Shown one piece after another: positions 1,115 through 58,623 of a stretch of DNA of 64,000 nt. The notes beneath the pieces are model-generated. The model made no database searches, was not told the origin of the DNA, and worked only from the letters and a program-made list of their open reading frames with translations. Position 1 is the first letter of the stretch; each line of letters starts with the position of its first letter. A program made the translations under genes and the position numbers. This DNA is from Candidatus Dormibacteria bacterium. GTDB lineage: Bacteria; Chloroflexota; Dormibacteria; Aeolococcales; Bog-877. The stretch is taken from NCBI GenBank assembly GCA_050734425.1, contig JBOHUL010000064.1, positions 16,683 to 80,682 of the forward strand, in the 5' to 3' direction.

Positions 1115-1319
1115 TGCGGCTGCGAGTATCTCCAGACCGAACAAGCCCGCGGGCCTCCAAACCCTTGCACCGAAGCGACCGCCCTGTGGCCGCCATGTTA
1201 ACGTCGCGCTGAGATCGCCGATCCCACGCTCTGACTCGCCGCCATTCCCAGGGGGCGCGACACTCCGGTCGGCTCCAGGGGGAGGCCTTGGCCCCCGCCG
1301 GGGCCAGCGGGTGGCAGGC

Positions 1320-1616
1320 ACGGCTGCTTTTGGCGGCCCCCACACCCTGGTGCTGGACGAAGCCACCTCGATCCTCGACCCTCGCTCCGCCCGGGCACCA
1401 GGAGCGCTTGCCGGGCAAGGCGCTGGAGGGCAGGACGGTGATCAGCGTCTCCCATCGCCGGGGCAGACTGCAGCCGCCGACCTGGTCGTGATGCTCAACG
1501 GGGAGCGGGTGGGTTCGCACCACCAGCTACTGGGGGAAGGCGGCCGCTACGCCGATCTCTGGCGCGCCGACGGAGGGGAGATGGACGACACTTCGGCAGG
1601 GGGAGGCCAACCCTAG
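1320..1616 (+). pseudogene. Remnant of ABC transporter ATP-binding domain C-terminus (Walker B and H-loop), frameshifted
   Basis: One frame reads ...HTLVLDEATSILD... (Walker B) and ...LNGERVGSHHQLLGEGGRYADLW (typical ABC exporter C-terminus). A second frame (1288..1491) carries GRTVISVSHRRG (H-loop). No N-terminal half is present. Confidence 0.4.
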
Positions 1617-1666
1617 CCGTGCCTCTGCCGCGCGTGGGCAGGACCCAAACGGGTATATAGGGGCGT

Positions 1667-2590: not shown

Positions 2591-2601
2591 GCGGTCCCGC
2601 C

Positions 2602-3177
2602 TTGGGATTCCTCGATTCCCTGATCGGGCGCACCAAACTTCCCAAGTCCAACGAGGACAAGATCTTCGCCATCGGCACGGCCGCGGTCGGCCTGGAGGCG
2701 TCCGCTTCCCTGAGCCCCGCCGGTCGGGTGGGGGTGGTGTTCAAGTCACTGCCCCCGGGCCGCTTCGACCAGCTGATCCAGGACACGGTGCAGATGCTCC
2801 AGATCAAGGACAGCACCAGTCCCGATGACCCCCTCAAGGTCAAGGACGTCAGGGACGAGCTGGGCTACGAGTGGCTGATTGTCGACGGAGACGACTTCGA
2901 CGGCCTGGTCGCCGCGCTCCACGGGGTGGCGCTGGGCTTGGAGGAGGAGGGGCTGGGCGGCTGTCTCTTGGCGGCGGTCTTCCCCTTTCTCCAGCGGGAC
3001 CGGCGGGTCTACTTCATCTACGGCTACAAGCAGGGCACCTTCTACCCCTTCGTCCCCAGCGGCGACCGCCAGCGCGACAACGCCGCCGAACTCGACCTGG
3101 CCACCAGGGCCAAGGAGGACCTGCCCATCGAGCCCAATCTCAGTTCCTGGTTCCCGCTCTGGGGGGTGCCGGTCTAG
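2602..3177 (+). CDS. Hypothetical cytoplasmic protein, possibly PspA-associated, immediately after htpX and convergent with pspA paralog 2
   Basis: 191-aa ORF, 12 bp after htpX; I recognise no domain. Its location between htpX and the second pspA suggests co-function (inference). Confidence 0.45.
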   Translation: MGFLDSLIGRTKLPKSNEDKIFAIGTAAVGLEASASLSPAGRVGVVFKSLPPGRFDQLIQDTVQMLQIKDSTSPDDPLKVKDVRDELGYEWLIVDGDDFDGLVAALHGVALGLEEEGLGGCLLAAVFPFLQRDRRVYFIYGYKQGTFYPFVPSGDRQRDNAAELDLATRAKEDLPIEPNLSSWFPLWGVPV

Positions 3178-3188
3178 ATGGACCGGGG

Positions 3189-4289
3189 TCAGGAGGCCTG
3201 GGCGCTGGCCTCCACGACTGTGCCGCCATCGGACATGAGCTTGGTCGCCTCCTCCAGGGTCATGTCCTCTGAGGGCAGGACCACGTCGGAGGGCAGCAGC
3301 GAATCGTTGGGCAGCTTGCTGCCGTGGGCGCGGACGAAGTTGAGCATGGCGCCGAGGGCGCCGGTGTAGGCACCCTGGTCCTGGGAGTCGATCGCCTTGC
3401 CCAGGGCGTTGTCCAAGGGCTCCAACTGGGGGCGCTCCGCGATGCTGAGCCGGTATTGGTCCTCGCCTGAGATCCGAACCACCACGCTCGGGGCGCCGCC
3501 GTTGCCGGCTGGGGCCTGGGGGCTGGCCGCCTGGCTCTCTTCGGCGGCCGATTGGTTGGAGGAGGCGATCCGAGGTGCCGACTCGGGCGCTCCCAGCACC
3601 TCCTGCTTCAGCGCCGCCAGCTGGGCGTCGACCTGGGAGTCGGTGAGGTGCCCCTGCAGCTGGCGGTCGATGTCGTCGCCGGAGTTCAGCCCGATGGTGT
3701 CCAGGGTGCCGCTGTCCATCAGGGAGTCGATCGCCTGGGAGCGTGCCTGCATCTGCTGGGTCTTGTCCTGGGCCCGCTCGACCATGAGGTTGACGTCGGT
3801 CATCTGCTCCGAGAGGCCGGTCACGGCCTCTCCGATCTGGGTCGAGGCCTTGGCTGCCGAGTACTGGGCCTTGAGGGTCTCGCGCTGGGTCTTGAATGAA
3901 GCGACCTTGGCGGTCAGCTTCTGGGCGGTGACCTCCAGCTTCTGCTCTTGGTCTTTGAGCTGCTGGATCTGAGCCGTCATCGCGTCAGCCTGGGCCTTGG
4001 CATCCTGGGCCCGGGTCAAGGCCAGTCGCGCCAGGTCCTCACGGCCCTGCTGCAGCGCCAGCTTGGCCTGGGTCTGGCACTTGTCCTGCGTCTGCTGCAG
4101 CTGGGCCTGCTGCATCTCAAGGCGCTTCTCCGAAGTCAAAACCGTGGCCACGCTGGCCTTGACCTTGGAGAGAGCCTCCATCTGCTTCTGGTAGGAGAGG
4201 TCCAAGGCATCCATCGGGTTCTCGGCCCGGTCCATGACCTTGTTGGCCTTCTGCTGGAACAGGTCGGACATCCGGCGCATGATGCTCAT
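3189..4289 (-). CDS. pspA: PspA/IM30 family protein, paralog 2, with ~130-aa C-terminal extension
   Basis: MSIMRRMSDLFQQKANKVMDRAENPMDALDLSYQKQMEAL... is a classic PspA N-terminus and coiled coil. AAGGAG RBS lies upstream of the ATG. The C-terminal ~130 aa are non-coiled and of unknown fold. Confidence 0.8.
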   Translation of the reverse strand: MSIMRRMSDLFQQKANKVMDRAENPMDALDLSYQKQMEALSKVKASVATVLTSEKRLEMQQAQLQQTQDKCQTQAKLALQQGREDLARLALTRAQDAKAQADAMTAQIQQLKDQEQKLEVTAQKLTAKVASFKTQRETLKAQYSAAKASTQIGEAVTGLSEQMTDVNLMVERAQDKTQQMQARSQAIDSLMDSGTLDTIGLNSGDDIDRQLQGHLTDSQVDAQLAALKQEVLGAPESAPRIASSNQSAAEESQAASPQAPAGNGGAPSVVVRISGEDQYRLSIAERPQLEPLDNALGKAIDSQDQGAYTGALGAMLNFVRAHGSKLPNDSLLPSDVVLPSEDMTLEEATKLMSDGGTVVEASAQAS

Positions 4290-4404
4290 CTCGGTCTCCT
4301 TGCTCGGCGGTGGCGGCCCCGCGCCCCCAGCGGCCCAGCCCCGATCTTAGCGGCTGATCGAGCTCAACTCTGCCACATTAGTTGATGTCCTGCGAGGGCG
4401 TCGG

Positions 4405-4843: not shown

Positions 4844-4926
4844 GGGCGGGTACCGAAGTGGTTAAACGGGGCTGACTGTAGATCAGCTGGCTCATGCCTA
4901 CGGGGGTTCGAATCCCTCCCCGCCCA
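4844..4926 (+). tRNA. tRNA-Tyr (anticodon GUA), type II with long variable arm; CCA not encoded
   Basis: Folded by hand: acceptor GGGCGGG/CCCGCCC, D arm, anticodon stem GCUGA/UCAGC with loop CUGUAGA, long variable hairpin GGC-ucau-GCC, T arm GGGGG-UUCGAAU-CCCUC. Coordinates +/-2. Confidence 0.8.
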
Positions 4927-5278: not shown

Positions 5279-5350
5279 GCCCAGGTAGCTCAGTGGCAGA
5301 GCGCTTCCTTGGTAAGGAAGAGGTCGCGGGTTCAATCCCCGCCCTGGGCT
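5279..5350 (+). tRNA. tRNA-Thr (anticodon GGU); CCA not encoded
   Basis: Hand fold: acceptor GCCCAGG/CCUGGGC, D arm GCUC-AGUGGCA-GAGC, anticodon stem CUUCC/GGAAG with loop UUGGUAA, T arm GCGGG-UUCAAUC-CCCGC. Confidence 0.8.
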
Positions 5351-5465: not shown

Positions 5466-5911
5466 CTAGCTGTACCTCCCACGTAGGTTGTTGCCACGAG
5501 TCACTGGAGGGAGCCTGCCAACCGCGGTGTGGGCGCGGTGATAGTTGTAGCGGTGCACCCAGGCGGGGAGCACGCGGGTCCGGCTGCTGTTGCTGATGTA
5601 GGGGCGGAAGTAAGCCCACTCCTCGAGCAGGGGGCGGTTGAAGCGCTCCACGTTGCCGTTCAACTGGGGGTGGTAGCGGGGGGTGAGCAGCTGGCGGATC
5701 CGGAGCTCGGACAGTGCGTGCCGGAAGTCGTTGGAGATCCGGTAGGCCTTGGCGTTGTCGGACATCACCGCCCCCACCTGGATCCCCAGCCCCTGGTAGA
5801 ACTGCTACGCCCGGCGCAGGCAAGCCGCGCACGGGGTTGCTCGCGGTGCGCCTCCACGTAGGCCAGCTGGCGGTGGTCGTCCACGGCGCAGTGCAGGTAG
5901 TCGTAGCCCTG
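5466..5911 (-). mobile_element. IS481-family (rve/DDE) transposase, C-terminal half only, frameshifted; decayed IS
   Basis: Two minus-strand frames: ...GYDYLHCAVDDHRQLAYVEAH... and ...AKAYRISNDF...YHPQLNGNVERFNRPLLEEWAYFRPYISNSSRTRVLPAWVHRYNYHRAHTAVGRLPPVTRGNNLRGRYS match the integrase-core C-terminus of IS481 transposases. N-terminal HTH and the first part of the core are absent. Confidence 0.6.
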
Positions 5912-6376: not shown

Positions 6377-6529
6377 CGGGGACGGCCAGGCAGATCAGCG
6401 GCGGCCGGGGCAAGCGGGCGCAACCTCGCGCGCGACCCGGCCTGGGCACTTTGGCACATCTCGATCTGTCGTGCTCTGGCGATCCCTGCCCGCCCGCGCT
6501 AACCTGCCCTAGACATTTGAGGTCTGTCT

Positions 6530-9500
6530 TTGATTTGTAGCAATTGTCAGGCGGAGACGACTCCTGGGCGGCGGTTCTGCGGGCAGTGCGGAGCGCCCCT
6601 GGCTCATGCTTGTGCCGCCTGCGGGGCGGCCAACCCGCCGGGGGCGAGGTTCTGCGAAGAGTGCGGCACGTCGCTCCAGCCGGTCCCGGCGGCGACTCCC
6701 GCGCCCGCTGCGGCAGCACCGCCACCGGCGCCTGGCAGCGAGACCATCGAGCTCAGATTCGTCTCGGTCGCGTTCGCCGACCTGGTCGGGTTCACCACCC
6801 TCGCCGAGGGTCGGGACCCGGAGGAGGTCCGCGAGCTCCTGACACGCTATTTTGAAGTCGCCAGGGAGCTGGTCAGCCGTTACGGGGGGACGGTGGAGAA
6901 GTTCATCGGGGACGCGGTCATGGCGGTCTGGGGAACCCCCACCGCCCAGGAGGACGATGCCGAGCGCGCGGTCCGCGCCTCCCTGGACCTGGTCGAGGCG
7001 GTCGGCCAGCTGGGGCTGCAGATGGGCTTGCCCGGGCTCTCGGCCCGAGCGGGGGTGCTCAGCGGCACGGCTGCCGTGACCGTCGGGGCCAGGGGCCAGG
7101 GGATGGTAGCCGGGGACCTGGTCAACACCGCCTCGCGGATCCAGGGCCAGGGTGCACCGGGACAGGTCCTGGTCGGGGAGACCACCAAGCGGGCTACCGA
7201 GGCGGCGATCGCCTACCAGGAGCTGGGGACGAAGAGCCTCAAGGGCAAGGGCGAGCCGACCGCGCTCTTCCAGGCGCTGCGGGTGGTGGCGGGGCTCGGA
7301 GGGATGCTCAAGTCGCAGCGCCTGGAAGCCCCTTTCGTGGGCCGTGAACGAGAGCTCCGCCTGGTCAAGGAGGTCTTCCACACCTCGACCGAGGAGCGCC
7401 GCGCCCACCTGGTGCAGGTGACTGGGGTGGCCGGGATCGGCAAGTCCCGGCTCGGTTGGGAGTTCTTCAAGTACATCGACGGGCTCCAGTCCGGCTACCT
7501 GTGGCATCGGGGCCGCTGCCTGGCCTACGGCCAGGGCATCACCTACTTCGCGCTCGCCGAGATGGTGCGCGGGCGGCTCGGGATCGTGGAGCAGGACCCG
7601 CCCGAGGTCGAGCAGGCCAAGCTCACCGCGACCCTGGAGCAGTACCTCCACGACGCCGACGACCGCGCCTTCGTCGCTCCCCGCTTGGCCCACTTGATCG
7701 GGTTGGCGGAGCGAACCGCCCCCGACCAGCAGGATCTCTTCGCCGCCTGGCGGCTCTTCTTCGAACGCATGGCCGAGGACAGCCCGGTGGTTCTGGTCTT
7801 CGAGGACATGCAGTGGGCGGACTCGGCCCTGCTGGAGTTCATCACCTACCTGATGGAGTGGTCCCGGAACTTCCCCCTGTTCGTCATGAGCCTGGTCCGC
7901 CCTGAGACGGCTCAGGCGGGCCTCGGGGCAAGCACTCGAAACGCCACCCTGATCCACCTGGAGCCGCTGTCCCCCGGGGCGATGGAGCAACTGCTCACGG
8001 GACTGGTCCCGGGCATCCCCCGCCTTCTGGCGGAGCGGATCCAGCAGCGGGCCCAGGGCGTGCCCCTCTATGCGGTGGAGACGGTGCGGATGCTCCTCGA
8101 CCGGGGCTTGCTGGTCGAAGACGGAGCCGCCTACCGGCCGACGGCCGAAATCGAGACGCTGGAGGTCCCGGACACTCTCCAGGCGCTGATCCTGGCCCGG
8201 CTCGACGGGATGGAGCCCGCGGAGAGACAACTGGTCCAGGAGGCTTCCGTGCTGGGTAAAACCTTCACCCTCGAGACCCTGGCCCGACTCTCGGGCGACA
8301 CCCACCAGGTAGTTGGGGCGGTGCTGCATGCGCTGGTGGCCAAGGAGGTCCTGGCGATCCAGAGCGATCCCCGCTCTCCCGAGCGGGGCCGCTACGGCTT
8401 TCTCCAGGACCTGGTGCGGACGGTCGCCTACGAGACACTCTCCAAGCGGGATCGGCGGTCCAAGCACCTGGCGGTGGCGACCGTCCTGGAGGCTGCCGCC
8501 GGCGACTCCGAGGATCTGGTCGAGGAGCTGGCCTCGCACTATCTGCAGGCCTGGCGCCTGGACCCGGACTCTGACGACGGCGGCGAGATCCGAAGGAAGG
8601 CCCGACGGCTTCTGGTCCGAACCGCCGAGCGGGCCGCCCAGCGGGCGGCGGTCGATGAGGCCCACGCCGCCTTCCAACGGGCCTCAGAACTGAGCGAGTC
8701 GCCGCTGGAGCGCGGTGCCCTGACTGAGCGGGCGGGGCAGATGGCGGAGCAGAGCGGCCAGCTGGACGAGGCGGACCAGCTCTACGAGGAGGCGACGCGG
8801 CTGCTCAAGGAGGGAGGCGACCACCGCGGGGCCGCCAGAGCCCAGGCGCGGCTGGCGGGGTCGGAGTACCAGCGGCTGCAGGTGGAGCAGGCGACCAAGC
8901 GAATGCAGCATGCGTACGCGGAGATGGCGACAGACGATCCCGACCCCGACGTCGCCGTGGTCACGGCCCAGCTCGGTCGCTTCCTGGCGCTTCAGGGCGA
9001 TGCCGAAAAGGCAGCACCGCTGCTGGAGCGAGCCCTGCACCTGGCGGAGCTGCTGGAGCTGCCTGACGTCTACTCTCAGGCCTTGAGCAGCAAGGCGGTC
9101 GTTCTCATGGGCCAAGACCGGATGGACGAGGCAGTGGTGCTCCTGCGGCGGGCCCTAGAGGTGGCCCTGGAGCACAGCCTCACCTTGGCCGCCAACCGCG
9201 CCTACAACAACCTGGGAACGGTGCTGGAGGCCCAGGAGCGCTACTCGGAGTTGGTCACCATGCTCACCCAGCAACTTGAGTTCGCCCGTAGGGTCGGCGA
9301 CCGCCCCTGGGAGCTCAGCACCCTGCTGGCCCATGTGACACCGTTGATGGGGCTCGGGCAATGGGACGAGGCCGTGGCCATGGTCGCGGAGGCCCGGGCG
9401 ACCGAACTGCCCTTGGTGGCATTCGCATGGAGCCAACTGGTGAGCCTGGTTAGCCTCCACTGCCACAGGGGCGAACTGGACGAGGCCGAGAGGGTTTTGG

Positions 9501-10078
9501 AGGCGACGCGATCTGCCGCGGAGGCCGACGAGTGGCAGTCCCGCCTGGCCTATTCCGCGGAGAGGGGTGTCGCCCTGCGCGCCCACGGTCGGATCGAGGA
9601 GGCGCTGATGGCGGCGGAAGGGGTCCTGGCGAGCAAGAGCAAAGTGGGCATGGGGATTACCAATCCGATCTTGAAAAGGGCGCTGGTGCTGGCCGGCGAC
9701 TGTGCCATCGACCTTGCAGACCCCGACCGCGCATCAAGGATCCTGGCAACCGCCCGCGACGCCCTGCCAGGCCAGGTCACCCCTTGGCTGAGGGGTCATC
9801 TGGCCAGGCTCTCGGCCAGGGAGTGCGCCCTGCATGGCGACACCCAGCAGGTGGAGCCGCTGTTCACAGCGGCGGAAGCCGGGTTCGGGGCCATCGACGA
9901 CCCCTTCGACCTGGCGGCTACCCGGGTCGAGCATGCCGAGTGGTTGGTCGAGCAGGCAAGGTCAGACGAGGCCCTCCAGCTCCTCGCCGAAGCACGCACG
10001 ACCCTGGAGCGTCTGGGCGCCCAGCCGTGGCTGGAAAGAGTCAGGCAGATCAGGATCGAAGAACGCCTACCCGCGTGA
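6530..10078 (+). CDS. Multidomain signalling protein: N-terminal double zinc ribbon, class III adenylate/guanylate cyclase catalytic domain, STAND/AAA NTPase (P-loop GVAGIGKS), C-terminal TPR-like helical repeats; no HTH
   Basis: CSNCQ...CGQCG...CAACG...CEECG (four CxxC). Cyclase motifs FADLVGFT, FIGDAVMAVWG, GDLVNTASRIQ (metal Asp pair plus Asn/Arg transition-state residues). Walker A VTGVAGIGKSRL, Walker B-like VLVFEDMQWAD. About 600 aa of alpha-helical repeats. TTG start in a locally AT-rich patch. Confidence 0.8.
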   Translation: MICSNCQAETTPGRRFCGQCGAPLAHACAACGAANPPGARFCEECGTSLQPVPAATPAPAAAAPPPAPGSETIELRFVSVAFADLVGFTTLAEGRDPEEVRELLTRYFEVARELVSRYGGTVEKFIGDAVMAVWGTPTAQEDDAERAVRASLDLVEAVGQLGLQMGLPGLSARAGVLSGTAAVTVGARGQGMVAGDLVNTASRIQGQGAPGQVLVGETTKRATEAAIAYQELGTKSLKGKGEPTALFQALRVVAGLGGMLKSQRLEAPFVGRERELRLVKEVFHTSTEERRAHLVQVTGVAGIGKSRLGWEFFKYIDGLQSGYLWHRGRCLAYGQGITYFALAEMVRGRLGIVEQDPPEVEQAKLTATLEQYLHDADDRAFVAPRLAHLIGLAERTAPDQQDLFAAWRLFFERMAEDSPVVLVFEDMQWADSALLEFITYLMEWSRNFPLFVMSLVRPETAQAGLGASTRNATLIHLEPLSPGAMEQLLTGLVPGIPRLLAERIQQRAQGVPLYAVETVRMLLDRGLLVEDGAAYRPTAEIETLEVPDTLQALILARLDGMEPAERQLVQEASVLGKTFTLETLARLSGDTHQVVGAVLHALVAKEVLAIQSDPRSPERGRYGFLQDLVRTVAYETLSKRDRRSKHLAVATVLEAAAGDSEDLVEELASHYLQAWRLDPDSDDGGEIRRKARRLLVRTAERAAQRAAVDEAHAAFQRASELSESPLERGALTERAGQMAEQSGQLDEADQLYEEATRLLKEGGDHRGAARAQARLAGSEYQRLQVEQATKRMQHAYAEMATDDPDPDVAVVTAQLGRFLALQGDAEKAAPLLERALHLAELLELPDVYSQALSSKAVVLMGQDRMDEAVVLLRRALEVALEHSLTLAANRAYNNLGTVLEAQERYSELVTMLTQQLEFARRVGDRPWELSTLLAHVTPLMGLGQWDEAVAMVAEARATELPLVAFAWSQLVSLVSLHCHRGELDEAERVLEATRSAAEADEWQSRLAYSAERGVALRAHGRIEEALMAAEGVLASKSKVGMGITNPILKRALVLAGDCAIDLADPDRASRILATARDALPGQVTPWLRGHLARLSARECALHGDTQQVEPLFTAAEAGFGAIDDPFDLAATRVEHAEWLVEQARSDEALQLLAEARTTLERLGAQPWLERVRQIRIEERLPA

Positions 10079-50119: not shown

Positions 50120-51093
50120 TGGCTCGGCTGCTGCGGCTGGTGACGCGCAACTTCCAGCTCAAGGTGATCGCGATCTTGGTCGCCTGCGGCATGTGGGTCG
50201 GGGTGGTCTACGCCAGCGACCCGCCCGCCATCGACGCCTACACCGTGGCGGTGCACCCGGCAGGTCTGCTGCACAAGGGGCTGGTCCTGCCGCGCCCGAT
50301 CGGATCCGTTCAAGTCAAGGTCGCCGGGTTCTTGAGCCAGGTGCACAGCCCCGAGGTGGCGACCCACCTCACGGCGAGCGCCGATTTGAGCCACATCACC
50401 CAGCCAGGCGAGTACCTGGTCAAACTCACCGTGCAGAAGACCGACGACAACGTCTCCATCTGGTCGGCGCCGAAGAAGGTCAAGGTGGTCGTAGATAGCG
50501 AGAAGACGGTCTCGCTGCCCGTCCACCTAAGCGTCGGTGCCAACCCGCCGCCAGGCTACGACCTGAATCAGGCACGGACCACTATCAGCCCCTCGACGGT
50601 CCAGGTCGAAGGTCCGGAGAGCGTCCTGGCCAACCTCCAGGCGGAAGCCGTGGTTGACCTGTCCCAGGCCCGGGTGTCGGAGCCGATCAGCAGCCCGGTG
50701 ACGCTGGTCAACACCGACGGCCTCGACAACGAGCTCACTGTCACCCCCAACTCGGTGACGGTCGACGTCGCCATCAGCTCGGAGACGACCCAGACCTCGG
50801 TCGGGGTCAAAACGGTCTTCGCTGGCAGTGGCCAGCCGGCGACGGGCTACGAGGTCACCGGGCTTCAGCTCCAGCCACTCACGGTCACGGTCAGCGGTCC
50901 GACCGCGGTCCTGACCAACCTGACGGCGATCGACACCGAGCCAATCGACATCAGCCATGCCACCGCCAGCGAAACGGTGACTGCCACCCTTGTGGCTCCT
51001 GCTGGAACAACACTCTCTCCGGGCGTGGTCAGCGTGGTCATCACCGTGGTCCCGATCCCCACCCCTTCGCCTTCGCCCAGCCCCAGCCCGTGA
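50116..51093 (+). CDS. cdaR: CdaA regulatory protein CdaR (YbbR domain repeats) with Pro/Ser/Thr-rich C-terminal tail
   Basis: N-terminal TM helix, repeated YbbR-like beta modules, overlaps cdaA by 4 nt. The tail is ...VVPIPTPSPSPSPSP. Confidence 0.7.
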   Translation: MMARLLRLVTRNFQLKVIAILVACGMWVGVVYASDPPAIDAYTVAVHPAGLLHKGLVLPRPIGSVQVKVAGFLSQVHSPEVATHLTASADLSHITQPGEYLVKLTVQKTDDNVSIWSAPKKVKVVVDSEKTVSLPVHLSVGANPPPGYDLNQARTTISPSTVQVEGPESVLANLQAEAVVDLSQARVSEPISSPVTLVNTDGLDNELTVTPNSVTVDVAISSETTQTSVGVKTVFAGSGQPATGYEVTGLQLQPLTVTVSGPTAVLTNLTAIDTEPIDISHATASETVTATLVAPAGTTLSPGVVSVVITVVPIPTPSPSPSPSP

Positions 51094-51176
51094 GCCACAG
51101 GCTCGTAACTCCTTCGCCAGGCGCGGCGTTGAAGCTGGCTGGAGGGCTCACTGAAGTGGGAGGCAGGTAGACCGCA

Positions 51177-53009
51177 GTGTGCGGCATCATCGGCTATCTG
51201 GGACCGCGGTCGGCCGCGCCGCTGCTGCTCGACAGCCTGCAGCGGCTGGAGTACCGCGGCTACGACTCGGCCGGGGTCGTGGTCCTCAAAGGGGACGGGA
51301 CCGCGACCGCGGTCAGGTCACCGGGGAAGGTCGAGGCGCTCCTGGCCTCGGCCGGCGTCGCGAGCCTCGAGGGCCAGGTCGGGATGGGTCACACCCGCTG
51401 GGCCACCCACGGCCGCCCATCCGAGGCCAACGCTCATCCCCAACGGGACTGCAGCGGCCGCTTCTTCGTCATCCACAACGGCATCATCGAGAACTTCGCT
51501 CAGCTGCGGCGGGAGTTGGTGGAGCTGGGCCACCGCTTCATCTCCGAGACGGACACCGAGGTTCTGCCCCACCTGATCGAGGAGTACTACCAGGGCGACC
51601 TGGTGGCGGCGACCCGGCGGGCGCTGGCCCGGCTCCAGGGGGCGTTCGCGGTGGTTGTTTTGAGCTCGACCGACCCAGACACCCTGATCGGAGCCAGGCT
51701 CAACGCCCCCCTGGTGGTCGGCGTCGGCCGCGACGAGTGGTTCCTCAGCTCCGACCTCACCGCCATCATCCCCTACACCAGGCAGGCGCTGGTGCTGGGG
51801 GAGGGGGACATGGCGGTGCTGAGCCCGGTGGGGCCGGTGGTGAGCTCGATCGTCGATGGGAGTGAGTCCGTGCCCCGGGTGGTGCGGGTCGACTGGGACG
51901 TGATCCAGGCGGAGCGCGGCGGCTTCCCCAGCTTCATGGCCAAGGAGATCCAAGAGCAGCCGGCGGCGCTGGAGAACGCCCTCCGGGGGAGGCTCCTCGG
52001 AGACGGCACGGTCGAGTTCCCCGAGTGGGATCTGGACGATGGCGCGCTGGCCTCGTTCGAGCGAATCCAGATCGTCGGCACCGGCACCGCCTACATCGCG
52101 GGCTTGTTGACCCGCTATGCCATCGAGGATTTGGCCCAGCTGCCGGTGGTGGTCGAGACCAGCTCCGAGTGGCGCTACCGACCTCAGCCCAGCGACGGCA
52201 AGACCCTGTTCTTGGCCATCTCTCAGTCGGGTGAGACTGCGGACACCCTGGCGGCGGCCCGCCTGGCCCGGGCTCAGCGCAGCCACCTGCTGGCTCTGAC
52301 CAACGTGGTCGGCAGCACCCTGGCCCTCGAGGCCGACTCGGTCATCAACCTCCACGCCGGACCCGAGATCTGCGTCGTCGCCACCAAGACGTTCGTCAAT
52401 CAGGTGGCCTGCGGGCTGCTGCTGGCCCTGCGCCTAGCGCAGGCCCGGGGGCGGATGAGTCAGGCCGACCGCGGCGAGATCGCCCAGGCCCTCCGGATGG
52501 TGCCCCAAGTGCAGCGCCAGATCTTAGCCCGAGAAGAGGGGATCGCGGCGATGGGCCGCTGGCTCTCGCAGGCCGGCTCCGCCCTGTACGTGGGCCGGGG
52601 CTACAACTATCCGGCGGCGATGGAGGCGGCGCTGAAGCTGAAGGAGGTCTCCTACGTCCACGCTGAGGCCTTGCCCGCGGGCGAGTTGAAGCACGGGCCC
52701 ATCGCCCTGCTGGATGAGCGGATGCCGGTCGTCGCCTTCGCGACCGAGTCCAAGACCCGGGAGAAGGTGCGCAGCAACGTCCAGGAGTCGCGGGCCCGTC
52801 AGAGCCCAATCCTGGCGATAGTGAATGACGGCGACACCACCCTGGAGGGTGTTGCCGATCACCTGCTGCCGGTGCCCCGGCTGCCGGAGCCGGTGTCGCC
52901 GCTGGCCACGGCCTTGGTGGGGCAGCTGCTTGCGTACCACGCGGCGCTCAAGAAGGGGCTGGATGTCGACCGCCCCCGGAACCTGGCCAAATCAGTCACA
53001 GTCGAGTGA
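51177..53009 (+). CDS. glmS: Glutamine--fructose-6-phosphate aminotransferase
   Basis: MCGIIGYLG... N-terminal Cys amidotransferase domain plus two SIS domains; C-terminus ...KSVTVE. Confidence 0.95.
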   Translation: MCGIIGYLGPRSAAPLLLDSLQRLEYRGYDSAGVVVLKGDGTATAVRSPGKVEALLASAGVASLEGQVGMGHTRWATHGRPSEANAHPQRDCSGRFFVIHNGIIENFAQLRRELVELGHRFISETDTEVLPHLIEEYYQGDLVAATRRALARLQGAFAVVVLSSTDPDTLIGARLNAPLVVGVGRDEWFLSSDLTAIIPYTRQALVLGEGDMAVLSPVGPVVSSIVDGSESVPRVVRVDWDVIQAERGGFPSFMAKEIQEQPAALENALRGRLLGDGTVEFPEWDLDDGALASFERIQIVGTGTAYIAGLLTRYAIEDLAQLPVVVETSSEWRYRPQPSDGKTLFLAISQSGETADTLAAARLARAQRSHLLALTNVVGSTLALEADSVINLHAGPEICVVATKTFVNQVACGLLLALRLAQARGRMSQADRGEIAQALRMVPQVQRQILAREEGIAAMGRWLSQAGSALYVGRGYNYPAAMEAALKLKEVSYVHAEALPAGELKHGPIALLDERMPVVAFATESKTREKVRSNVQESRARQSPILAIVNDGDTTLEGVADHLLPVPRLPEPVSPLATALVGQLLAYHAALKKGLDVDRPRNLAKSVTVE

Positions 53010-54289
53010 CCGGCGGGACCGAAGCAGGTTCTCCCCACCGACTGGGGGTCGGGGTCGACGTCAGTTCGGTGGAGCGCGTCGCCGAGCTGGTCCGGAGCCA
53101 GCCTCGGTTCGTGGAGAAGTACTTCACCGCCGCGGAGGCCGCCTACTGCCTTGGCCGACCCGAGCGTCTGACAGCCCGCTGGGCGGCCAAGGAGGCGGTG
53201 CGCAAGCTGTTCGGCAGCCTGGGCTGGAGGATTCCCCTCTATGTAGAGATCTCGGTGCGGCGTCGCCCTGGGGGGGCGCCGGAGGCGCTCATCCGGGGCG
53301 AGCCGGTGGCCGGTCTGGAGCTCAGCCTGAGCCATGACGCCGGGGTCGGGGTGGCCGTGGCGGTGATGGCGAGCGAGGCCCTGCGGCAGCCCCTCTCAGT
53401 GCCCTGGCCCGCGGATCTGGCCCTGCCGGTGCGCCCGGTGGACGGCCACAAGGGCACCTTCGGCACGGTCTTGGTCATCGCTGGCAGCCGATCCTTCCCG
53501 GGAGCCGCAGTCCTCTGCGCCCTGGGAGCTCTCAGGGGAGGTGCGGGAAAGGTTCAGGCCGTGACCCTGGACCCGGCCAGCGCCGCCTTCCCTCCGGAGT
53601 TGATCCGGCTGGCGGTCAGCGACGGCGGAGAGGGCCTGGGGGCGGCTGCGATCATCCAGGTCCGGCCCCAGCTGCAGGCGGCCACGGCGGTGGTTTGCGG
53701 TCCGGGGCTCGGACTGTCGGCGGCGACGGGTGAGCTGCTCTCAGAGTTGTTCCGGGCAGCTGAACAGATGTCCTTCAAGCTGGTGCTCGACGCCGACGCC
53801 CTCAATGCCTGCGCCCGCGAGCGTCAGCTCCTGGAGCGGATTCCCCAGGGGGCGGTGCTCACACCCCATCCCCTGGAGGCGGCCCGGCTGGCGGGCATGG
53901 AGTTGGCACAGATCCAAGCCGACCGGGAGGGGCAAGCCCGGGCCCTGGCCCAGTCCCTGGGAACGGTGCTGGTGCTCAAGGGCGCGGGGACGGTGGTGGC
54001 GGACCCCCGGGGGAAGTGCTGGACCGATCAACATGCCACTGCTGCCCTGGCGGCAGGGGGCAGCGGCGACGTGCTCGCGGGGCTGGTCGGGGCACTTCTG
54101 GCCCAGGGGATGGACGCGCCGGGTGGCGCCCGGGCGGCGGTCTACCTCCATGGCGAGGCAGGGACCCGGTTGGGACTGCGGCGGGGCAGGGCGGGCATCC
54201 TCGCCAGTGAGGTTGCCTCGGAACTCGTGGAGACGGCCGAGGCGCTGCGCCGGACTCAGCCGGGCCGGGGCGGAGTCACACCGCCTTGA
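53006..54289 (+). CDS. acpS: Fusion protein: holo-ACP synthase (AcpS, N-terminal ~125 aa) plus ADP-dependent NAD(P)H-hydrate dehydratase (YjeF_C / Nnr dehydratase domain)
   Basis: N-terminus GVGVDVSSVERVAE...FTAAEAAYC...RWAAKEAVRKLFG...LSLSHDAGVGVAV is AcpS. The C-terminus VDGHKGTFGTVLVIAGSRSFPGAAVLCALGALRGGAGKV...LTPHPLE...VLKGAGTVVA...GGSGDVLAG is YjeF_C. No YjeF_N epimerase domain is present. Confidence 0.8.
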   Translation: MTGGTEAGSPHRLGVGVDVSSVERVAELVRSQPRFVEKYFTAAEAAYCLGRPERLTARWAAKEAVRKLFGSLGWRIPLYVEISVRRRPGGAPEALIRGEPVAGLELSLSHDAGVGVAVAVMASEALRQPLSVPWPADLALPVRPVDGHKGTFGTVLVIAGSRSFPGAAVLCALGALRGGAGKVQAVTLDPASAAFPPELIRLAVSDGGEGLGAAAIIQVRPQLQAATAVVCGPGLGLSAATGELLSELFRAAEQMSFKLVLDADALNACARERQLLERIPQGAVLTPHPLEAARLAGMELAQIQADREGQARALAQSLGTVLVLKGAGTVVADPRGKCWTDQHATAALAAGGSGDVLAGLVGALLAQGMDAPGGARAAVYLHGEAGTRLGLRRGRAGILASEVASELVETAEALRRTQPGRGGVTPP

Positions 54290-55449
54290 GCTCACCGGGC
54301 AGTGAGGCACCGGTGTTCCGGTCGCCCCAGCGGCCCACCTGGATCGAGATCGACGAATCCGCCCTGGGACGGAACGTGGCGGAGGTGGTGCGAGAGCTGG
54401 GGGGCGTGGCACTGATGGCCGTGGTCAAGGCGGATGGCTACGGCCATGGGGCGGCCACCGTGGCTCGGGTGGCGGTTGGCAACGGGGCCGCCTGGGTGGG
54501 GACGGCCACCGTGGCCGAGGCCTCGCAACTGCGGCGGCAGGGGGTCACGGCGCCGATCCTGGTGCTGGGCTACACCCCCCCGGAGGAGGTCCTGGCGGCG
54601 GTCGCCGCCAATCTCGCCATCACCGTCTTCGACCTCGCGGTCCTGGAGGCACTGGAGCGGGCCGGTACCGCCCTTGGGCAGCGCGCCTGCGCCCACCTCG
54701 AGGTGGACACCGGCATGAGCCGTCTCGGGGTGGCACCGGAGCAGGTCGCGACCTTCGCCGTCGCGGCAAGCCGCTGCGCCCACGTGGACCTGGAGGGGTG
54801 CTACACCCACTTCCGCCACGGCGCCGATCCTCTAGCCACCCGGGAGCAGCTCGCCCGGTTGCTCCGGGCCCTCGACGCGTCTCGTGGCGCGGGTGTTGAG
54901 TTCCGCCTGCGCCATGCCGCCAACAGTGCCGCGTGGAAGACGGTGCCCGAGGCGCGACTGGACCTGGTGCGGTTGGGGATCGAGCTCCTGGGCCTGACCA
55001 CCCCCGATGGCCGGCGCCGGGAGCCGGTCCTGAGTCTCCGCACCACAGTGGCCCAGGTCCGCGAGGTGGAGGCCGGGACCTTTGTCGGATATGAGGGGGG
55101 GTTCCAGGCTCCCCGAGCCATGCGCATCGCCACCATTCCAATCGGCTACGGCGACGGCTTCCGGCGCACCCCGAGCAACTGGGGCATGGTGCTCATTGGG
55201 GGCCGGGCGCGGCCGCTGGTCGGGCACGTCTGCATGGACCTGGCGATGGTCGATGTGAGCGACCCGCCCGAGGTCGGGGCCAGCGACGTGGTCACGCTGC
55301 TGGGCCGCGATGGCGACGCCCGACTCAGGGCCGAGACCGTGGCCCAGAGGCTCGGGACCATCAACTACGAGGTGACCACCGCGCTCTCCGCCCGGGTGCC
55401 GCGGGAGTCCCTCAGTGCTGGGATCGGGCTGGCTAAGGGCCCGGCCTAG
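54286..55449 (+). CDS. alr: Alanine racemase
   Basis: ...AVVKADGYGHGA... PLP-Lys motif; TIM barrel plus C-terminal beta domain. Confidence 0.9.
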   Translation: MSSPGSEAPVFRSPQRPTWIEIDESALGRNVAEVVRELGGVALMAVVKADGYGHGAATVARVAVGNGAAWVGTATVAEASQLRRQGVTAPILVLGYTPPEEVLAAVAANLAITVFDLAVLEALERAGTALGQRACAHLEVDTGMSRLGVAPEQVATFAVAASRCAHVDLEGCYTHFRHGADPLATREQLARLLRALDASRGAGVEFRLRHAANSAAWKTVPEARLDLVRLGIELLGLTTPDGRRREPVLSLRTTVAQVREVEAGTFVGYEGGFQAPRAMRIATIPIGYGDGFRRTPSNWGMVLIGGRARPLVGHVCMDLAMVDVSDPPEVGASDVVTLLGRDGDARLRAETVAQRLGTINYEVTTALSARVPRESLSAGIGLAKGPA

Positions 55450-55458
55450 AATCAAGTC

Positions 55459-56355
55459 ATGAGTTCGGCCTCGGGGGGGTCGCCCCGGTCCCCTTTGGGC
55501 CGAGCGCGACTCTCACGGCTACGGGAGGCCCGCCTCTACCTGGTCACCGACGATGCCACGCCCGCGGACGGGCTCCCAGAGCTGGTGGCGGCGGCGGCTC
55601 GGGGCGGGGCGGACCTGGTTCAGCTCCGGCGCAAGGGCGTCGAGCCCGCGCGGTTGCGCGGGCTGGCCGAGGACTGTCTCAGGCGGGCGCGAGAGGGTGG
55701 TGCCCTGTTTCTGGTGGACGACCACGTCGAGCTGGCTCTGCAGATCGGTGCCGACGGAGTCCACCTGGGCCAGCAGGACCAGGAGCCGGCGCGGGCCCGC
55801 GCCCGGCTGGGGCCGGACGCGATCCTGGGCGTCTCAACCCACGCCCTGCCCCAGCCTCGGTCGGCCCTGGAGAGCGGCGCCGACTACATCTCGGCCGGAC
55901 CGGTCTTCTCAACTCCCACCAAGCCGGGGCGGGAGGCCGTGGGCTTTGACTATGTCTCCGCCGCCGCCACCAGCGTTCCCCTGCCCCTGGTCGCAATCGG
56001 GGGTCTGGCGGCGGACAGTGCGGGCGAGGCGATCCGGCGGGGTGCAGACATGATCGGGGTGGTGCGCTGCATCTGCCAGGCGACGGACCCCGAGGCGGCG
56101 GCCAGGGAGCTGCGCCGCGCCATCGGCCACGCCACCCCCTGGGACTGGCTCGAGGTCAACGGCGAGAGGCGCCGGTGCCCGGGGGGCAGCCGGGGGGCGG
56201 ACCTCCTTCGACAGCTGGGGCTCGGCCTCGAAGGGGTGGTGGTGGAGTTGAATGGTGAGATGCTGACTCGCGAGGGCCTGGAGACGACGCGTCTGCTGGC
56301 CGGCGACCGGTTGGAGGTGGTGCACCTGGTTGGTGGAGGCATGGGCCATGGGTGA
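55459..56355 (+). CDS. thiE: Thiamine-phosphate synthase ThiE fused in-frame to sulfur-carrier ThiS (C-terminal ~70 aa ending ...VGGGMGHG)
   Basis: ThiE runs LYLVTDD... to ...ATDPEAAARELRRAI. It continues without stop or start codon into WLEVNGERRRCPGG...LTREGLETTRLLAGDRLEVVHLVGGG (ThiS beta-grasp with terminal GG), then a 5-aa tail. Confidence 0.75.
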   Translation: MSSASGGSPRSPLGRARLSRLREARLYLVTDDATPADGLPELVAAAARGGADLVQLRRKGVEPARLRGLAEDCLRRAREGGALFLVDDHVELALQIGADGVHLGQQDQEPARARARLGPDAILGVSTHALPQPRSALESGADYISAGPVFSTPTKPGREAVGFDYVSAAATSVPLPLVAIGGLAADSAGEAIRRGADMIGVVRCICQATDPEAAARELRRAIGHATPWDWLEVNGERRRCPGGSRGADLLRQLGLGLEGVVVELNGEMLTREGLETTRLLAGDRLEVVHLVGGGMGHG

Positions 56356-57148
56356 CGATCGACTGCGGCTGGGAGAGGTGGAGCTGGACTCGCGGCTGAT
56401 CCATGGGACCGCCAGGTTCCCCTCTTCTGGGGTGCTGGCTGCGGCCATCGCCGCCGCAGGCTCGGAGATGCTGACAGTGTCGATCCGGCGGTTCCACCTG
56501 GATGGGGACCGGCGCACCGAGCTGGAGCAGCTGGACCTCAAGGCCTACCGGATCCTGGCCAACACTGCCGGGGCCACGACGGCAGCCGAGGCGGTGCGGC
56601 TCGCTCGGTTGGCCCGGGCGGCGTCGGTGTCGGACCTGATCAAGGTCGAGGTCGTCGGTGACCCCGAGACGCTGCTGCCGGACCCGATCGCGACCATGGA
56701 GGCGACGAGGGAGCTGGTGGCCCAGGGTTTCACCGTCCTGCCATATGCCAGCGACGACGTGGCGCTGGCGCTGCGGCTGGCCGAGGCCGGTGCGGTGGCG
56801 GTGATGCCCGGGGCCGCCCCGATCGGATCCACCCTGGGGGTGCTCAATCCCCACAACCTCCGGGCCATCATCGAAAGGTGCCCGGTACCGGTGATCGTCG
56901 ACGCCGGCCTGGGTTCACCGGCCGACGCCGTCCGGGTGATGGAGTGGGGTGCCGCCGGGGTCCTGGTCAACACCGGGATCGCCAAGGCCCAGGATCCGGT
57001 GGCGATGGCCCGCGCCTTCGGTGAGGCGGTCAGGGTCGGGCGAGCCGCCCACCGGGCGGGACCTGCGGGCGACCGACTTCCGAGCGGCTTCGGTGCCAGC
57101 AGCCCGGCTGAGGGCGTGCCCCGGCCCCTGGTGCCGGTCAGCGGCTGA
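56348..57148 (+). CDS. thiG: Thiazole synthase ThiG
   Basis: MGDDRLRLGEVELDSRLIHGTARFPS... ThiG (TIM barrel; Lys Schiff base). GGAGG RBS 8 nt upstream of ATG 56348; overlaps the thiE-thiS 3' end. Confidence 0.9.
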   Translation: MGDDRLRLGEVELDSRLIHGTARFPSSGVLAAAIAAAGSEMLTVSIRRFHLDGDRRTELEQLDLKAYRILANTAGATTAAEAVRLARLARAASVSDLIKVEVVGDPETLLPDPIATMEATRELVAQGFTVLPYASDDVALALRLAEAGAVAVMPGAAPIGSTLGVLNPHNLRAIIERCPVPVIVDAGLGSPADAVRVMEWGAAGVLVNTGIAKAQDPVAMARAFGEAVRVGRAAHRAGPAGDRLPSGFGASSPAEGVPRPLVPVSG

Positions 57149-57158
57149 GGGCGACTCC

Positions 57159-58184
57159 CTGGTCCGCTCCAAGACGGCCTGGCGACGCGCCGCCTGGGGT
57201 GAGGGCAGGCCTCTGGCGGAGGTCGGCGAAGGCCGGGCCCTGGAGGCCCTGATCGAGCTCGCAGGGCCACCGCCACCGGGGGCGGCGGTGGCTCCGGGAG
57301 ACGACGCCGCCGACCTAGGGCCTCTTTCGGGTGGCCCCGTGCTGCTCTCGACCGACAGCCTCTGCGAGGACGTGGACTTCCGGCGCCAGTACCAGTCGCC
57401 CTACCAGGTGGGCTGGAAGGCGTGGATGGCGGCGGCCTCCGACCTGGCGGCGATGGGGGCGCGGGTTGACGGCGGCCTGGCGGCGGCCCTTGTCCCGGAC
57501 CTTGCCACCGAGAACGAGCTGATGGCCATCCAGCTGGGCCTGGTGGAAGCGGCCGCGGCGGACTCTGCCCGGGTCCTGGGAGGTGACCTGAGCCGGACCC
57601 CGGGACCGCTGGCCGTGACCGTGACCGTGATGGGACACATGGAGGCGGGACGGCCGGTGGCACTGGGCGGGGGCTCGCCCGGGGAGCTGCTGGTCCTGAC
57701 CGGCAGCGTGGGGGCGGCCGCGATGGCGCTGCAGCTCCTGGAGTCGGGCCAGGCCGCGGTGCCCCCGCCCTGGCTGGAGCGGCTACTGCTCCCCACCGCG
57801 CGGGTGGAGGCGGGGGTCGCGCTCCAGCGCGGTGGGGTCCGGGCCATGACGGACATCAGCGACGGCCTCCTGCTCGACCTCTCCCGGCTGTGCCGGGCCA
57901 GTCGAGTGGGAGCGGAGCTCTGGCTCGACCGGGTGCCATTGGCCCCCGGGTCGGCCCCGGGCTGCGACCAGCTGCGCTCGGCTCTCTCCGGAGGCGAGGA
58001 CTTCGAGCTGCTGGCCGCCATCCCCGAGCCGGACCTCGAGCCGCTGCGGTCGAGGTGGGAGGAGGCCCTGCCGCCCCTTGCCGTCGTGGGCAGATTGGTC
58101 AGCGGCGGCGGTGTCGTGTTGCGCTCGCGCCCGGGGGGCGACGTCGTCACCCTGCAGGGTATAGATGGCTACCGGCACTTCTGA
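57159..58184 (+). CDS. thiL: Thiamine-monophosphate kinase ThiL (start codon uncertain; no in-frame ATG/GTG/TTG between the thiG stop and the conserved N-terminal region)
   Basis: ...GEGRALEALIELAGP...APGDDAADLGPLSGGPVLLSTDSLCEDVDF...ASDLAAMGA... is the PurM-like ThiL. The only in-frame ATG (56949) lies 200 nt inside thiG. A plausible CTG at 57213 follows a GAGGG RBS. Confidence 0.7.
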   Translation: MVRSKTAWRRAAWGEGRPLAEVGEGRALEALIELAGPPPPGAAVAPGDDAADLGPLSGGPVLLSTDSLCEDVDFRRQYQSPYQVGWKAWMAAASDLAAMGARVDGGLAAALVPDLATENELMAIQLGLVEAAAADSARVLGGDLSRTPGPLAVTVTVMGHMEAGRPVALGGGSPGELLVLTGSVGAAAMALQLLESGQAAVPPPWLERLLLPTARVEAGVALQRGGVRAMTDISDGLLLDLSRLCRASRVGAELWLDRVPLAPGSAPGCDQLRSALSGGEDFELLAAIPEPDLEPLRSRWEEALPPLAVVGRLVSGGGVVLRSRPGGDVVTLQGIDGYRHF

Positions 58185-58623
58185 GGCAGAGGAGGAGCGG
58201 CTCTGGCGCACCTCCGGCGCCGCCGCCACCCGGGAGCTGGGGCGGCGGCTGGGCCGGGCCCTTCGGCCCGGCGACTGCCTGGCCCTCAAGGGGGAGCTGG
58301 GCTCGGGGAAGACGGTCCTGGCCCAGGGCATAGTGTCCGGAGCAGGCGGTGGCGAGGACGTTCGCAGCCCCACCTTCCTGCTCCACGCCGTCTACCCGGG
58401 CAGGGTCACGGTCCACCACTTGGATCTTTACCGCCTCGAGGCAGAGGTCGACCTCCGTCGCCTGGGTATCGACGAGGCCCTGGAGGAAGGCGCGGTGGTG
58501 GTGGAGTGGCCGGAGCGCTGTGCCTCTGCCTGGTTCAACGGCGAGGTGGGCCTGGAGATCCTGGACTCCGAGGTGCGACAGATAAGCCTGCGCTTGCGCT
58601 CCGGACTACTCGACGGTGACTGA
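58165..58623 (+). CDS. tsaE: tRNA t6A37 biosynthesis protein TsaE (YjeE ATPase)
   Basis: ...LKGELGSGKTVLAQGI... P-loop. Confidence 0.85.
   Translation: MATGTSEAEEERLWRTSGAAATRELGRRLGRALRPGDCLALKGELGSGKTVLAQGIVSGAGGGEDVRSPTFLLHAVYPGRVTVHHLDLYRLEAEVDLRRLGIDEALEEGAVVVEWPERCASAWFNGEVGLEILDSEVRQISLRLRSGLLDGD

Follow-up and report, generated by a model that had tools for sequence, protein, structure and literature searches.

A stretch of 64,000 nucleotides (nt) from a Candidatus Dormibacteria bacterium (assembly GCA_050734425.1, contig JBOHUL010000064.1, positions 16,683 to 80,682 of the forward strand), hereafter the window, carries three thiamine genes, thiES, thiG and thiL, between alr and tsaE. 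In thiES, thiamine-phosphate synthase (ThiE) and the sulfur carrier ThiS are encoded as one polypeptide that continues past the ThiS glycines in a short tail. Comparison with other genomes indicates that throughout much of the phylum Dormibacterota the two genes are normally fused in this way, which is new. The reading that we favor, to which we assign a probability of roughly 0.55 as a whole, joins a constitutive and translationally coupled operon, a functional ThiES protein with a trimmed tail, a possible tethering of enzymes through ThiS, and initiation of thiL at the CTG codon at position 57159. The source is a metagenome-assembled genome (MAG) with a guanine plus cytosine (GC) content of 69%.

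An earlier note on this DNA had described thiE as running in frame into a complete ThiS, and this was borne out by a single open reading frame (ORF) in which Pfam and NCBIfam recognized both domains. ThiES passed the NCBIfam models for thiE (TIGR00693, 177.8 bits compared to a cut-off of 145.1) and thiS (TIGR01683, 51.4 bits compared to a cut-off of 37.45, over positions 2-64 of 64), and it fell far under the cut-off of the model for the paralogue TenI (NF005819, 87 compared to 251). By these curated models the N-terminal domain is assigned to ThiE and not to TenI. The AlphaFold2 model, built from 40 homologues, had a mean predicted local distance difference test score (pLDDT) of 91.7 and a predicted template modeling score (pTM) of 0.88, and showed a barrel with a small beta-rich domain on its C-terminal side; residues 1-6 and 293-298 alone had a pLDDT below 50. 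The best Foldseek matches were 2tps, 1g4t and 3o63, with target template modeling (TM) scores of 0.83-0.90 and 35-39% identity, and the top match of the barrel was B. subtilis ThiE (2tps; target TM-score 0.83, 38% identity). The predicted structure has the triosephosphate isomerase (TIM) barrel fold of the solved ThiE structures.

When 5.8 billion proteins were searched for homologues, a protein identical to ThiES (P0001) was found in the public MAG GCA_974104925.1. Approximately 47 further clusters of fusion proteins were recovered at 51-60% identity, 292-299 amino acids in length and with both Pfam domains, plus a few truncated members, and every named one came from Candidatus Dormibacteria or Dormibacterota. 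When 40 fusion proteins were aligned, W228 at the domain junction and V291, G292, G293 and G294 near the C-terminus were invariant. Genome contigs were also scanned with back-translated patterns derived from the ThiE-ThiS alignment. These patterns were too general, and the matches listed were mostly cyanobacterial thiE loci, among them adjacent but separate thiE and thiS genes; at least three Dormibacterota-like loci were also among the matches listed. Apparent ThiE-ThiS fusions in Deinococcus (L056), Thermomicrobium (L066) and an actinobacterial MAG (L059) were rejected, as Pfam found ThiS only; they arose because GC-rich frames free of stops give long stop-to-stop ORFs.

The ThiS part of the protein ends in V291-G-G-G294 (GTT GGT GGA GGC), which is followed by M-G-H-G and the stop TGA 56353-56355. 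The four residues past GGG are the same tail that the earlier note had counted as five past the first Gly-Gly. In the window, thiES and thiG overlap by 8 nt, ATGGGTGA, within the junction ATGGNTGA. Tails proved to be common in other genomes, as had been asked, and were present in 37 of the 47 fusion clusters. Their length was 0 residues in 10 clusters, 1 in one, 2 in six, 3 in seven, 4 in 20 and 5 in three. Tail sequence was variable as well, the commonest endings being HG, DG, RG, NG and YG. These endings result from the thiG start being read out of frame, the last two tail codons (xAT/xGT-GGN) being that start in another frame. In total, 24 of the 37 tails ended in Gly and the others in D, A, E, S, R or V. 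Every tailed locus had the junction ATGGNTGA, GTGGCTGA or ATGAGTGA, and the architecture of the window, with the thiG start inside the tail, was common to L001, L085, L087, L167, L169 and L170. In the tail-less locus L003, thiG was located 200 nt downstream.

These findings indicate that the tail, which varies, is a side effect of the 8-nt overlap between thiES and thiG. The idea of a conserved processing signal had to be abandoned, since both length and sequence vary and the tail derives from the overlap. A recent duplication of 6-7 nt (ATGGGCC ATGGGTG) was considered as the origin of the tail and was rejected, the commonest form being xxHG with unrelated first two residues. The codons of the last ThiS glycines contain a GGAGG motif that was found in seven of seven tailed relatives; GGA and GGT are minority codons, making up 11% and 10.5% of Gly codons here, respectively. 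It is suggestive only, but the ThiS glycine codons may double as the ribosome-binding site of thiG with the tail as spacer. The thiG start is located 8 nt past GGAGG, and the thiES stop falls inside thiG codons 2-3.

A different state of the same junction was observed in three Dormibacterota-like loci among the matches listed (L026, L030 and L048), where ThiS is fused in frame to ThiG via 5-6 residues, and this linker aligns with the N-terminus of the window ThiG. Set against the window, these alternative states indicate that the thiE-thiS-thiG junctions of Dormibacterota switch fusion states through small frame changes. The ThiS-ThiG fusions lie at 6585-7637 in 'Chloroflexi bacterium CF_12' (L026), 6423-7112 in 'Chloroflexi bacterium CF_121' (L030) and 1382-2626 in 'Dormiibacterota SMAG_U2671' (L048), and a separate thiE was observed upstream in L030 and L048.

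The surroundings of the thiamine genes were compared in 11 related loci, of which flanks of up to 10 kb were read. The gene order glmS, acpS-nnrD fusion, alr, thiES, thiG, thiL, tsaE, tsaB, rimI, tsaD and groES/groEL was found in 10 of 11 loci (synteny is kept in L001, L003, L085/86, L087, L167, L169, L170, L172 and L173). In the remaining arrangement, L168, alr is followed directly by thiL after a gap of 377 nt (3623-4001) with no thiES or thiG, and no remnants of either gene were detected in this gap by tblastn. Because L168 has alr-thiL-tsaE without them, thiES-thiG would be a unit that was gained or lost, and thiL belongs with tsaE by the same comparison. The earlier description of thiamine genes inserted into an alr-tsaE cluster thus holds for thiES-thiG and fails for thiL. 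The thiL-tsaE neighborhood is itself a classical gene pair, ydiA-ydiB of B. subtilis; thiL-tsaE-tsaB-rimI-tsaD corresponds to the ydiA-E arrangement of that species, and glmS...alr-tsaE-tsaB-rimI-tsaD-groES-groEL to the actinobacterial or mycobacterial one. The acpS-nnrD fusion of the window (53006-54289, + strand, 427 amino acids) combines AcpS PF01648, a 4'-phosphopantetheinyl transferase, with Carb_kinase PF01256, an NAD(P)HX dehydratase, and an AcpS-Carb_kinase fusion was called in all related Dormibacterota loci.

The genes are tightly packed, with 9 nt between alr and thiES, an 8-nt overlap of thiES and thiG, 10 nt between thiG and thiL, and a 20-nt overlap of thiL and tsaE, the last also found in L085. 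The spacing of 9 nt between the alr stop TAG 55447-55449 and the thiES ATG at 55459 agrees with the earlier reading; in L085, L167, L169, L170, L172 and L173 this spacer is 3-9 nt. A spacer of this length has no room for a promoter, terminator or riboswitch. At the Rfam gathering score, three tRNAs were the only matches in the whole 64-kb window, so that no thiamine pyrophosphate (TPP) or hydroxymethylpyrimidine pyrophosphate (HMP-PP) riboswitch was found there, and none was found in 50500-58600 at E<=10 or by Rfam in four related loci. The absence of a TPP riboswitch, which had been claimed before, is upheld over these ranges. Promoter-like or terminator-like sites above chance were not found in 50.5-62.5 kb. 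The thiamine genes appear to be co-transcribed with the housekeeping genes. As we picture it, thiES, thiG and thiL would be a native part of a tightly packed, translationally coupled housekeeping operon, and alr-thiES-thiG-thiL-tsaE would be expressed constitutively at a low level, with no riboswitch.

The ThiL protein passed TIGR01379 (227 compared to a cut-off of 184.15), and both AIRS domains, PF00586 and PF02769, matched. In its frame there is no ATG, GTG or TTG between the thiG stop (57146-57148) and GTG 57288, and the conserved GE motif lies upstream of 57288. An in-frame GTG, 57093, is located 56 nt upstream of the thiG stop, in a part that the earlier search did not cover. The claim that thiL lacks a canonical start holds from the thiG stop to the GE motif and does not hold for the sequence further upstream, where GTG 57093 was missed. 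Relatives of ThiL with 341 amino acids begin with M, V or L followed by xxS(K/R)xxLRxxGW, and the window sequence L-VRSKTAWRRAAWGEG... aligns with them without gaps from CTG 57159, where they have ATG, GTG or TTG starts. The L085 frame is closed by a TAG 19 codons upstream, so that translation could begin at the TTG in the aligned position at the earliest. Residues R9 and W13, encoded between CTG 57159 and CTG 57213, show conservation of at least 90%, and their codons differ synonymously from locus to locus, which indicates that this segment is translated and counts against CTG 57213. The preference for CTG 57213 expressed in the earlier note was therefore given up for CTG 57159.

The start region was compared in 12 loci with DNA, 11 of them distinct, L087 and L169 being identical there; L087 was the only close relative among the matches listed when metagenome contigs were scanned with the ThiL alignment. 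A canonical codon was present at the aligned position in six of 12 (L085, L001, L087/L169, L170 and L172). No canonical start preceded the conserved segment in the other six (the window, L167, L173, L168, L003 and L174), which have CTG or ATC at or near the aligned spot. The recurrence of a missing canonical thiL start in Dormibacterota is real, but its frequency in these loci is inflated by the way in which they were sampled. In L167 (~3914), L173 (~2896) and L174 (~687) an in-frame thiL CTG was seen to overlap the thiG TGA (cTGA), resembling coupling of the ATGA type. A programmed frameshift between thiG and thiL was rejected, the relative frame being +1 in the window and -1 in L085.

We propose that thiL initiates at the near-cognate CTG 57159, homologous to the ATG, GTG and TTG starts of its relatives. 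Initiation at CUG in E. coli reaches approximately 1-2% of that at AUG (bioRxiv 10.1101/063800). Such a start would give weak translation of thiL, possibly coupled to thiG termination 10 nt upstream, and a weak CTG, comparable to the weak TTG found in relatives, agrees with an enzyme of which traces suffice. The alternative that thiL starts elsewhere, at GTG 57093, CTG 57213 or GTG 57288, is independent of those discussed below and is less probable than not. The first of these is the nearest canonical in-frame codon upstream and would add 22 residues and a 56-nt overlap with thiG, but the extension is not conserved, and the relatives L085 and L167 have in-frame stops or no canonical codons there. 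CTG 57213 has the identical GAGGG-N7-CTG context (57201-57215) and would give an N-terminus with few residues before GE, like that of E. coli ThiL; the conserved R9 and W13 upstream, with their synonymous codon variation, speak against it. Gene callers picked downstream starts in several relatives, and the source annotation starts thiL of the window at GTG 57339 (281 amino acids), the last of the alternative starts after GTG 57093, CTG 57213 and GTG 57288. However, GTG 57288 would remove the invariant G23-E24 motif, and GTG 57339 would lose the invariant GDDAA as well.

To return to ThiS, the free C-terminal Gly-Gly of the family is absent from the ThiES translation product and present in 10 of the 47 fusion clusters, and the genomic coupling of ThiS to thiG is retained, with thiG overlapping the end of thiES. 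Mean pairwise identity of the ThiS domain was 0.56 in tailed and 0.52 in tail-less clusters, respectively, and that of the ThiE domain was 0.65 in both. Because ThiS is conserved equally with or without a tail, VGGG is invariant and an intact ThiG adjoins, we infer that the fused and tailed ThiS is a working sulfur carrier. The earlier suggestion of a non-functional ThiS is unlikely for the same reasons. Proteolysis had also been thought necessary for a fused and extended ThiS. The fusion itself does not call for it, since ThiS is attached by its N-terminus and lies at the C-terminal end, with 10 of 47 clusters tail-less; the part of the argument that stands concerns the short tail, which blocks the Gly-Gly.

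Sulfur carriers blocked in a comparable manner are known. QbsE carries a GG-CF end, and QbsD is its partner JAMM protease. MoaX of M. tuberculosis must be cut after Gly82 by a protease that is not known (PMC4326299), the MoaD-MoaE fusion of D. radiodurans is cleaved by DRJAMM (PMC8832034), and cleavage by JAB proteins was proposed for fused ThiS and MoaD by Iyer et al. 2006 (PMC1779556). A JAMM/MPN+ domain was not found in the scanned ORFs of the window or in the Pfam lists of the neighbors in the 11 related loci, nor did a ThiF-type domain (PF00899) turn up among the window ORFs that were scanned or among the Pfam domains listed for the relatives' flanks. A processing system of the CysO/Mec+ type, brought up in the earlier note, would thus be no more than a possibility. 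Tails on ThiS were met more widely when 1.84 billion cluster representatives were searched with the ThiS profile. Among the best 150, from which the tail statistics were taken, 94 ended at GG, 25 had 1-8 extra residues and 30 had longer extensions, some of which may be gene-call or assembly artefacts. Standalone ThiS with a tail was found in at least five cyanobacterial loci, of which three had GGGS, one had GGGNGQ and one had an extension of 16 residues. GGG followed by S was seen in the picocyanobacteria Prochlorococcaceae, Synechococcus and Vulcanococcus (L006, L010, L013 and protein P0244), and past GGG there was NGQ in Cyanothece and 16 residues in Geitlerinema (L004 and L025). By these counts ThiS tails are neither peculiar to Dormibacterota nor rare.

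It could be argued that the fused ThiS is not a carrier at all and serves as a structural or ThiG-docking module, a separate tail-less ThiS being encoded elsewhere in the genome. The blocked Gly-Gly in 79% of fusions would agree with this, but VGGG is invariant in tailed and tail-less proteins alike, conservation is not relaxed when a tail is present, and docking alone would not need terminal glycines. Moreover, no second ThiS domain was found within the flanks of any Dormibacterota locus fetched, and a word-index search with the ThiS domain, which did not recover the fusions, gave only five distant solo ThiS proteins. The only named organism among them was cyanobacterial, and the genomic context of P0241, the best solo match and the one whose context was looked up, was unrelated. 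We regard a docking module as unlikely.

Somewhat less probable still is that the tail is kept and that ThiF and ThiG accept a longer, flexible, glycine-rich end, the new C-terminal residue often being Gly. The frequent terminal Gly of the tails, their predicted disorder and the lack of an evident processing enzyme nearby are in line with this. However, the terminal Gly follows from the thiG codon that overlaps it (GGN TGA) and not from selection, D, A, E, S, R or V is the last residue of other tails, and lengths of 0-5 residues would need very different geometries for one conserved ThiG. In the ThiF-ThiS and ThiG-ThiS structures the last ThiS residues are buried in the active site, which also argues against a retained tail.

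Sequencing or assembly indels in separate thiE and thiS genes are a very improbable source of the fusion, of its tail and of a thiL that has no canonical start. The DNA does come from a GC-rich MAG, the ThiS and thiG frames differ by 1 nt and CTG is one base away from TTG or ATG, but an in-frame fusion of like length recurs in approximately 47 independent clusters from many samples and assemblers, which excludes the artefact for the fusion, the tail and overlap architecture is seen again in six other loci, and thiL has no canonical start in five other loci with differing sequences, so that for fusion and tail an indel is effectively refuted by the comparison of sequences.

The favored reading can then be stated as a whole. 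ThiES would be a bifunctional protein in which ThiS is tethered to ThiE by its N-terminus, so that its flexible C-terminal end remains accessible to ThiF and ThiG. Since ThiG is where ThiS docks, ThiE may be brought by this attachment to the side of ThiG, the maker of the thiazole substrate of ThiE. The tail would then be removed by a putative peptidase, exposing the Gly-Gly. Several points weigh against this reading. The trimming of the tail after translation is purely an extrapolation, proposed because the blocked carriers cited above are matured by cleavage. The high pTM of the ThiES model is the sole direct support for channeling, which may occur. The GGAGG motif is also present in the tail-less L003 junction and occurs 3.95 times per kb in this GC-rich genome, and a role of the motif as thiG ribosome-binding site is for that reason unproven. 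For thiL, a single assembly supports the C at 57159, and the sequence of the only other thiL contig (P0121, partial) begins one codon further on. The GAGGG-N7 context of CTG 57213 is equally good, and the in-frame GTG 57093 exists upstream. The sample of thiL loci was also biased to short gene calls, which inflates the frequency of the missing start.

A wider proposal goes beyond this, and we consider it tentative and rather less than probable. In it, a peptidase step would trim ThiS in Dormibacterota, in the lineages with tailed ThiS (approximately one sixth) and in all ThiS-ThiG fusions; an assembly of ThiE-ThiS with ThiG would hand thiazole phosphate over to thiamine-phosphate synthase directly; and CTG or ATC starts of thiL would routinely set very low levels of the enzyme, perhaps by termination-reinitiation.

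The positions of the features discussed are collected in the table below. In the source annotation, alr starts at ~54313.

Table. Features of the alr-thiES-thiG-thiL-tsaE region in window coordinates
Feature	Position	Strand	Description
alr (alanine racemase)	54286..55449	+	Ala_racemase_N, Ala_racemase_C; TIGR00492 307.6 compared to a cut-off of 168; stop TAG 55447-55449
alr-thiES spacer	55450..55458	+	9 nt, AATCAAGTC; no Rfam match
thiES	55459..56355	+	Single ORF, 298 codons, ATG to TGA; ThiE-ThiS fusion (ORF list, Pfam, NCBIfam, AlphaFold2)
ThiE domain (thiamine-phosphate synthase)	55534..56073	+	Residues 26-205; Pfam TMP-TENI PF02581, E=8e-54
ThiS beta-grasp domain	56152..56340	+	Residues 232-294; PF02597, profile positions 2-76 of 76
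GGAGG Shine-Dalgarno-like motif	56335..56339	+	Gly293/Gly294 codons; 8 nt upstream of thiG ATG
Tail M-G-H-G	56341..56352	+	Four codons, ATG GGC CAT GGG, after ThiS GGG (sequence)
thiG (thiazole synthase)	56348..57148	+	PF05690, E=5e-88; ATG within thiES tail; TGA 57146-57148
GAGGG Shine-Dalgarno-like motif	57147..57151	+	7 nt upstream of CTG 57159; overlaps thiG stop
thiL (thiamine-phosphate kinase)	57159..58184	+	Proposed start CTG 57159, 341 codons; TIGR01379
tsaE	58165..58623	+	PF02367; overlaps thiL end by 20 nt

Other features of the window and its relatives were noted in passing. A cluster at 329-4346 encodes two PspA/IM30 proteins, of which one carries a fused PspAA domain, together with an M48 peptidase and a PspAB protein. 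The tRNA genes at 4844-4926 and 5279-5350 adjoin a 112-amino-acid integrase-core fragment (rve_3, 5466-5804, minus strand), which may be the remnant of a mobile element. A protein of 1185 amino acids at 6521-10078 (+ strand) combines a double zinc ribbon, an adenylate/guanylate cyclase, an AAA_16 ATPase and TPR repeats. In L003, alr (7363-9852) was called with 829 amino acids, approximately twice the normal length, with only alanine-racemase domains annotated. In P0252, a protein of 6952 amino acids, 22 separate stretches matched ThiS profile positions 6-27; it is probably a repeat protein that shares a short motif.

A gene fusion, a missing start codon and a ThiS whose C-terminus is blocked look like annotation errors, and here they are found lineage-wide in an uncultured soil phylum. 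Gene callers shorten thiL to 281-315 amino acids in Dormibacterota, dropping conserved and even catalytic-motif residues. They also label ThiES just 'thiamine phosphate synthase', with the consequence that pathway reconstructions would score thiS as missing. The findings sharpen a question raised in 2006 for ThiS-ThiG fusions, namely how a Gly-Gly that is not terminal becomes competent for adenylation. The tailed and tail-less variants of Dormibacterota form a natural set for phylogenetic profiling of peptidases and for heterologous tests.

A literature search found no paper on the thiamine genes of Dormibacterota. The closest counterpart of ThiES is the ThiE/ThiS fusion catalogued for Paenibacillus curdlanolyticus YK9, one case in approximately 1000 genomes (Henry et al. 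2016, PMC4921024, Table S3A), and such a fusion was also found here in Paenibacillus xanthanilyticus (L009). Like ThiES, it is one ORF of approximately 300 amino acids with TMP-TENI at the N-terminus and ThiS at the C-terminus. In contrast to the tailed ThiES of the window, the Paenibacillus protein is tail-less, its last residues being ...VGGG. It is isolated in its genus, whereas the Dormibacterota fusion is the rule across much of a phylum and is part of a housekeeping operon.

Fusions of ThiS to ThiG have been described in many proteobacteria and in Rubrobacter (Iyer et al. 2006, PMC1779556), with 23 cases in Henry et al. 2016 (PMC4921024), and ThiS-ThiG and ThiS-ThiF fusions with an internal Gly-Gly are already well documented. 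ThiES resembles the ThiS-ThiG fusions in a polypeptide that runs past the ThiS Gly-Gly at the same thiS/thiG junction, so that a free carboxylate needs cleavage. It differs in that ThiG of the window is kept separate by a 1-nt frame offset four residues after GGG, and that ThiS is fused to ThiE. MoaX, MoaD-MoaE with DRJAMM, and QbsE with QbsD share with ThiES a beta-grasp carrier whose Gly-Gly is not at the primary C-terminus. MoaX and MoaD-MoaE belong to the molybdopterin pathway and QbsE to that of thioquinolobactin, whereas ThiES belongs to that of thiamine. For D. radiodurans and Qbs a JAMM protease is known; in the scanned neighborhood of ThiES there is none, and cleavage of ThiES is suggested by analogy.

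The gene order around the thiamine genes is that of the ydiA-E-type clusters and of the actinobacterial glmS...groEL clusters. The window differs from these in having thiES-thiG wedged between alr and thiL, and L168 has the order without thiES-thiG. What is new compared to all of these systems is a ThiE-ThiS fusion that is the norm in much of Dormibacterota, mostly with a short tail derived from the overlap, together with a thiL that often has no canonical start. The three traits are real but only modestly new, and they do not make up a new type of system.

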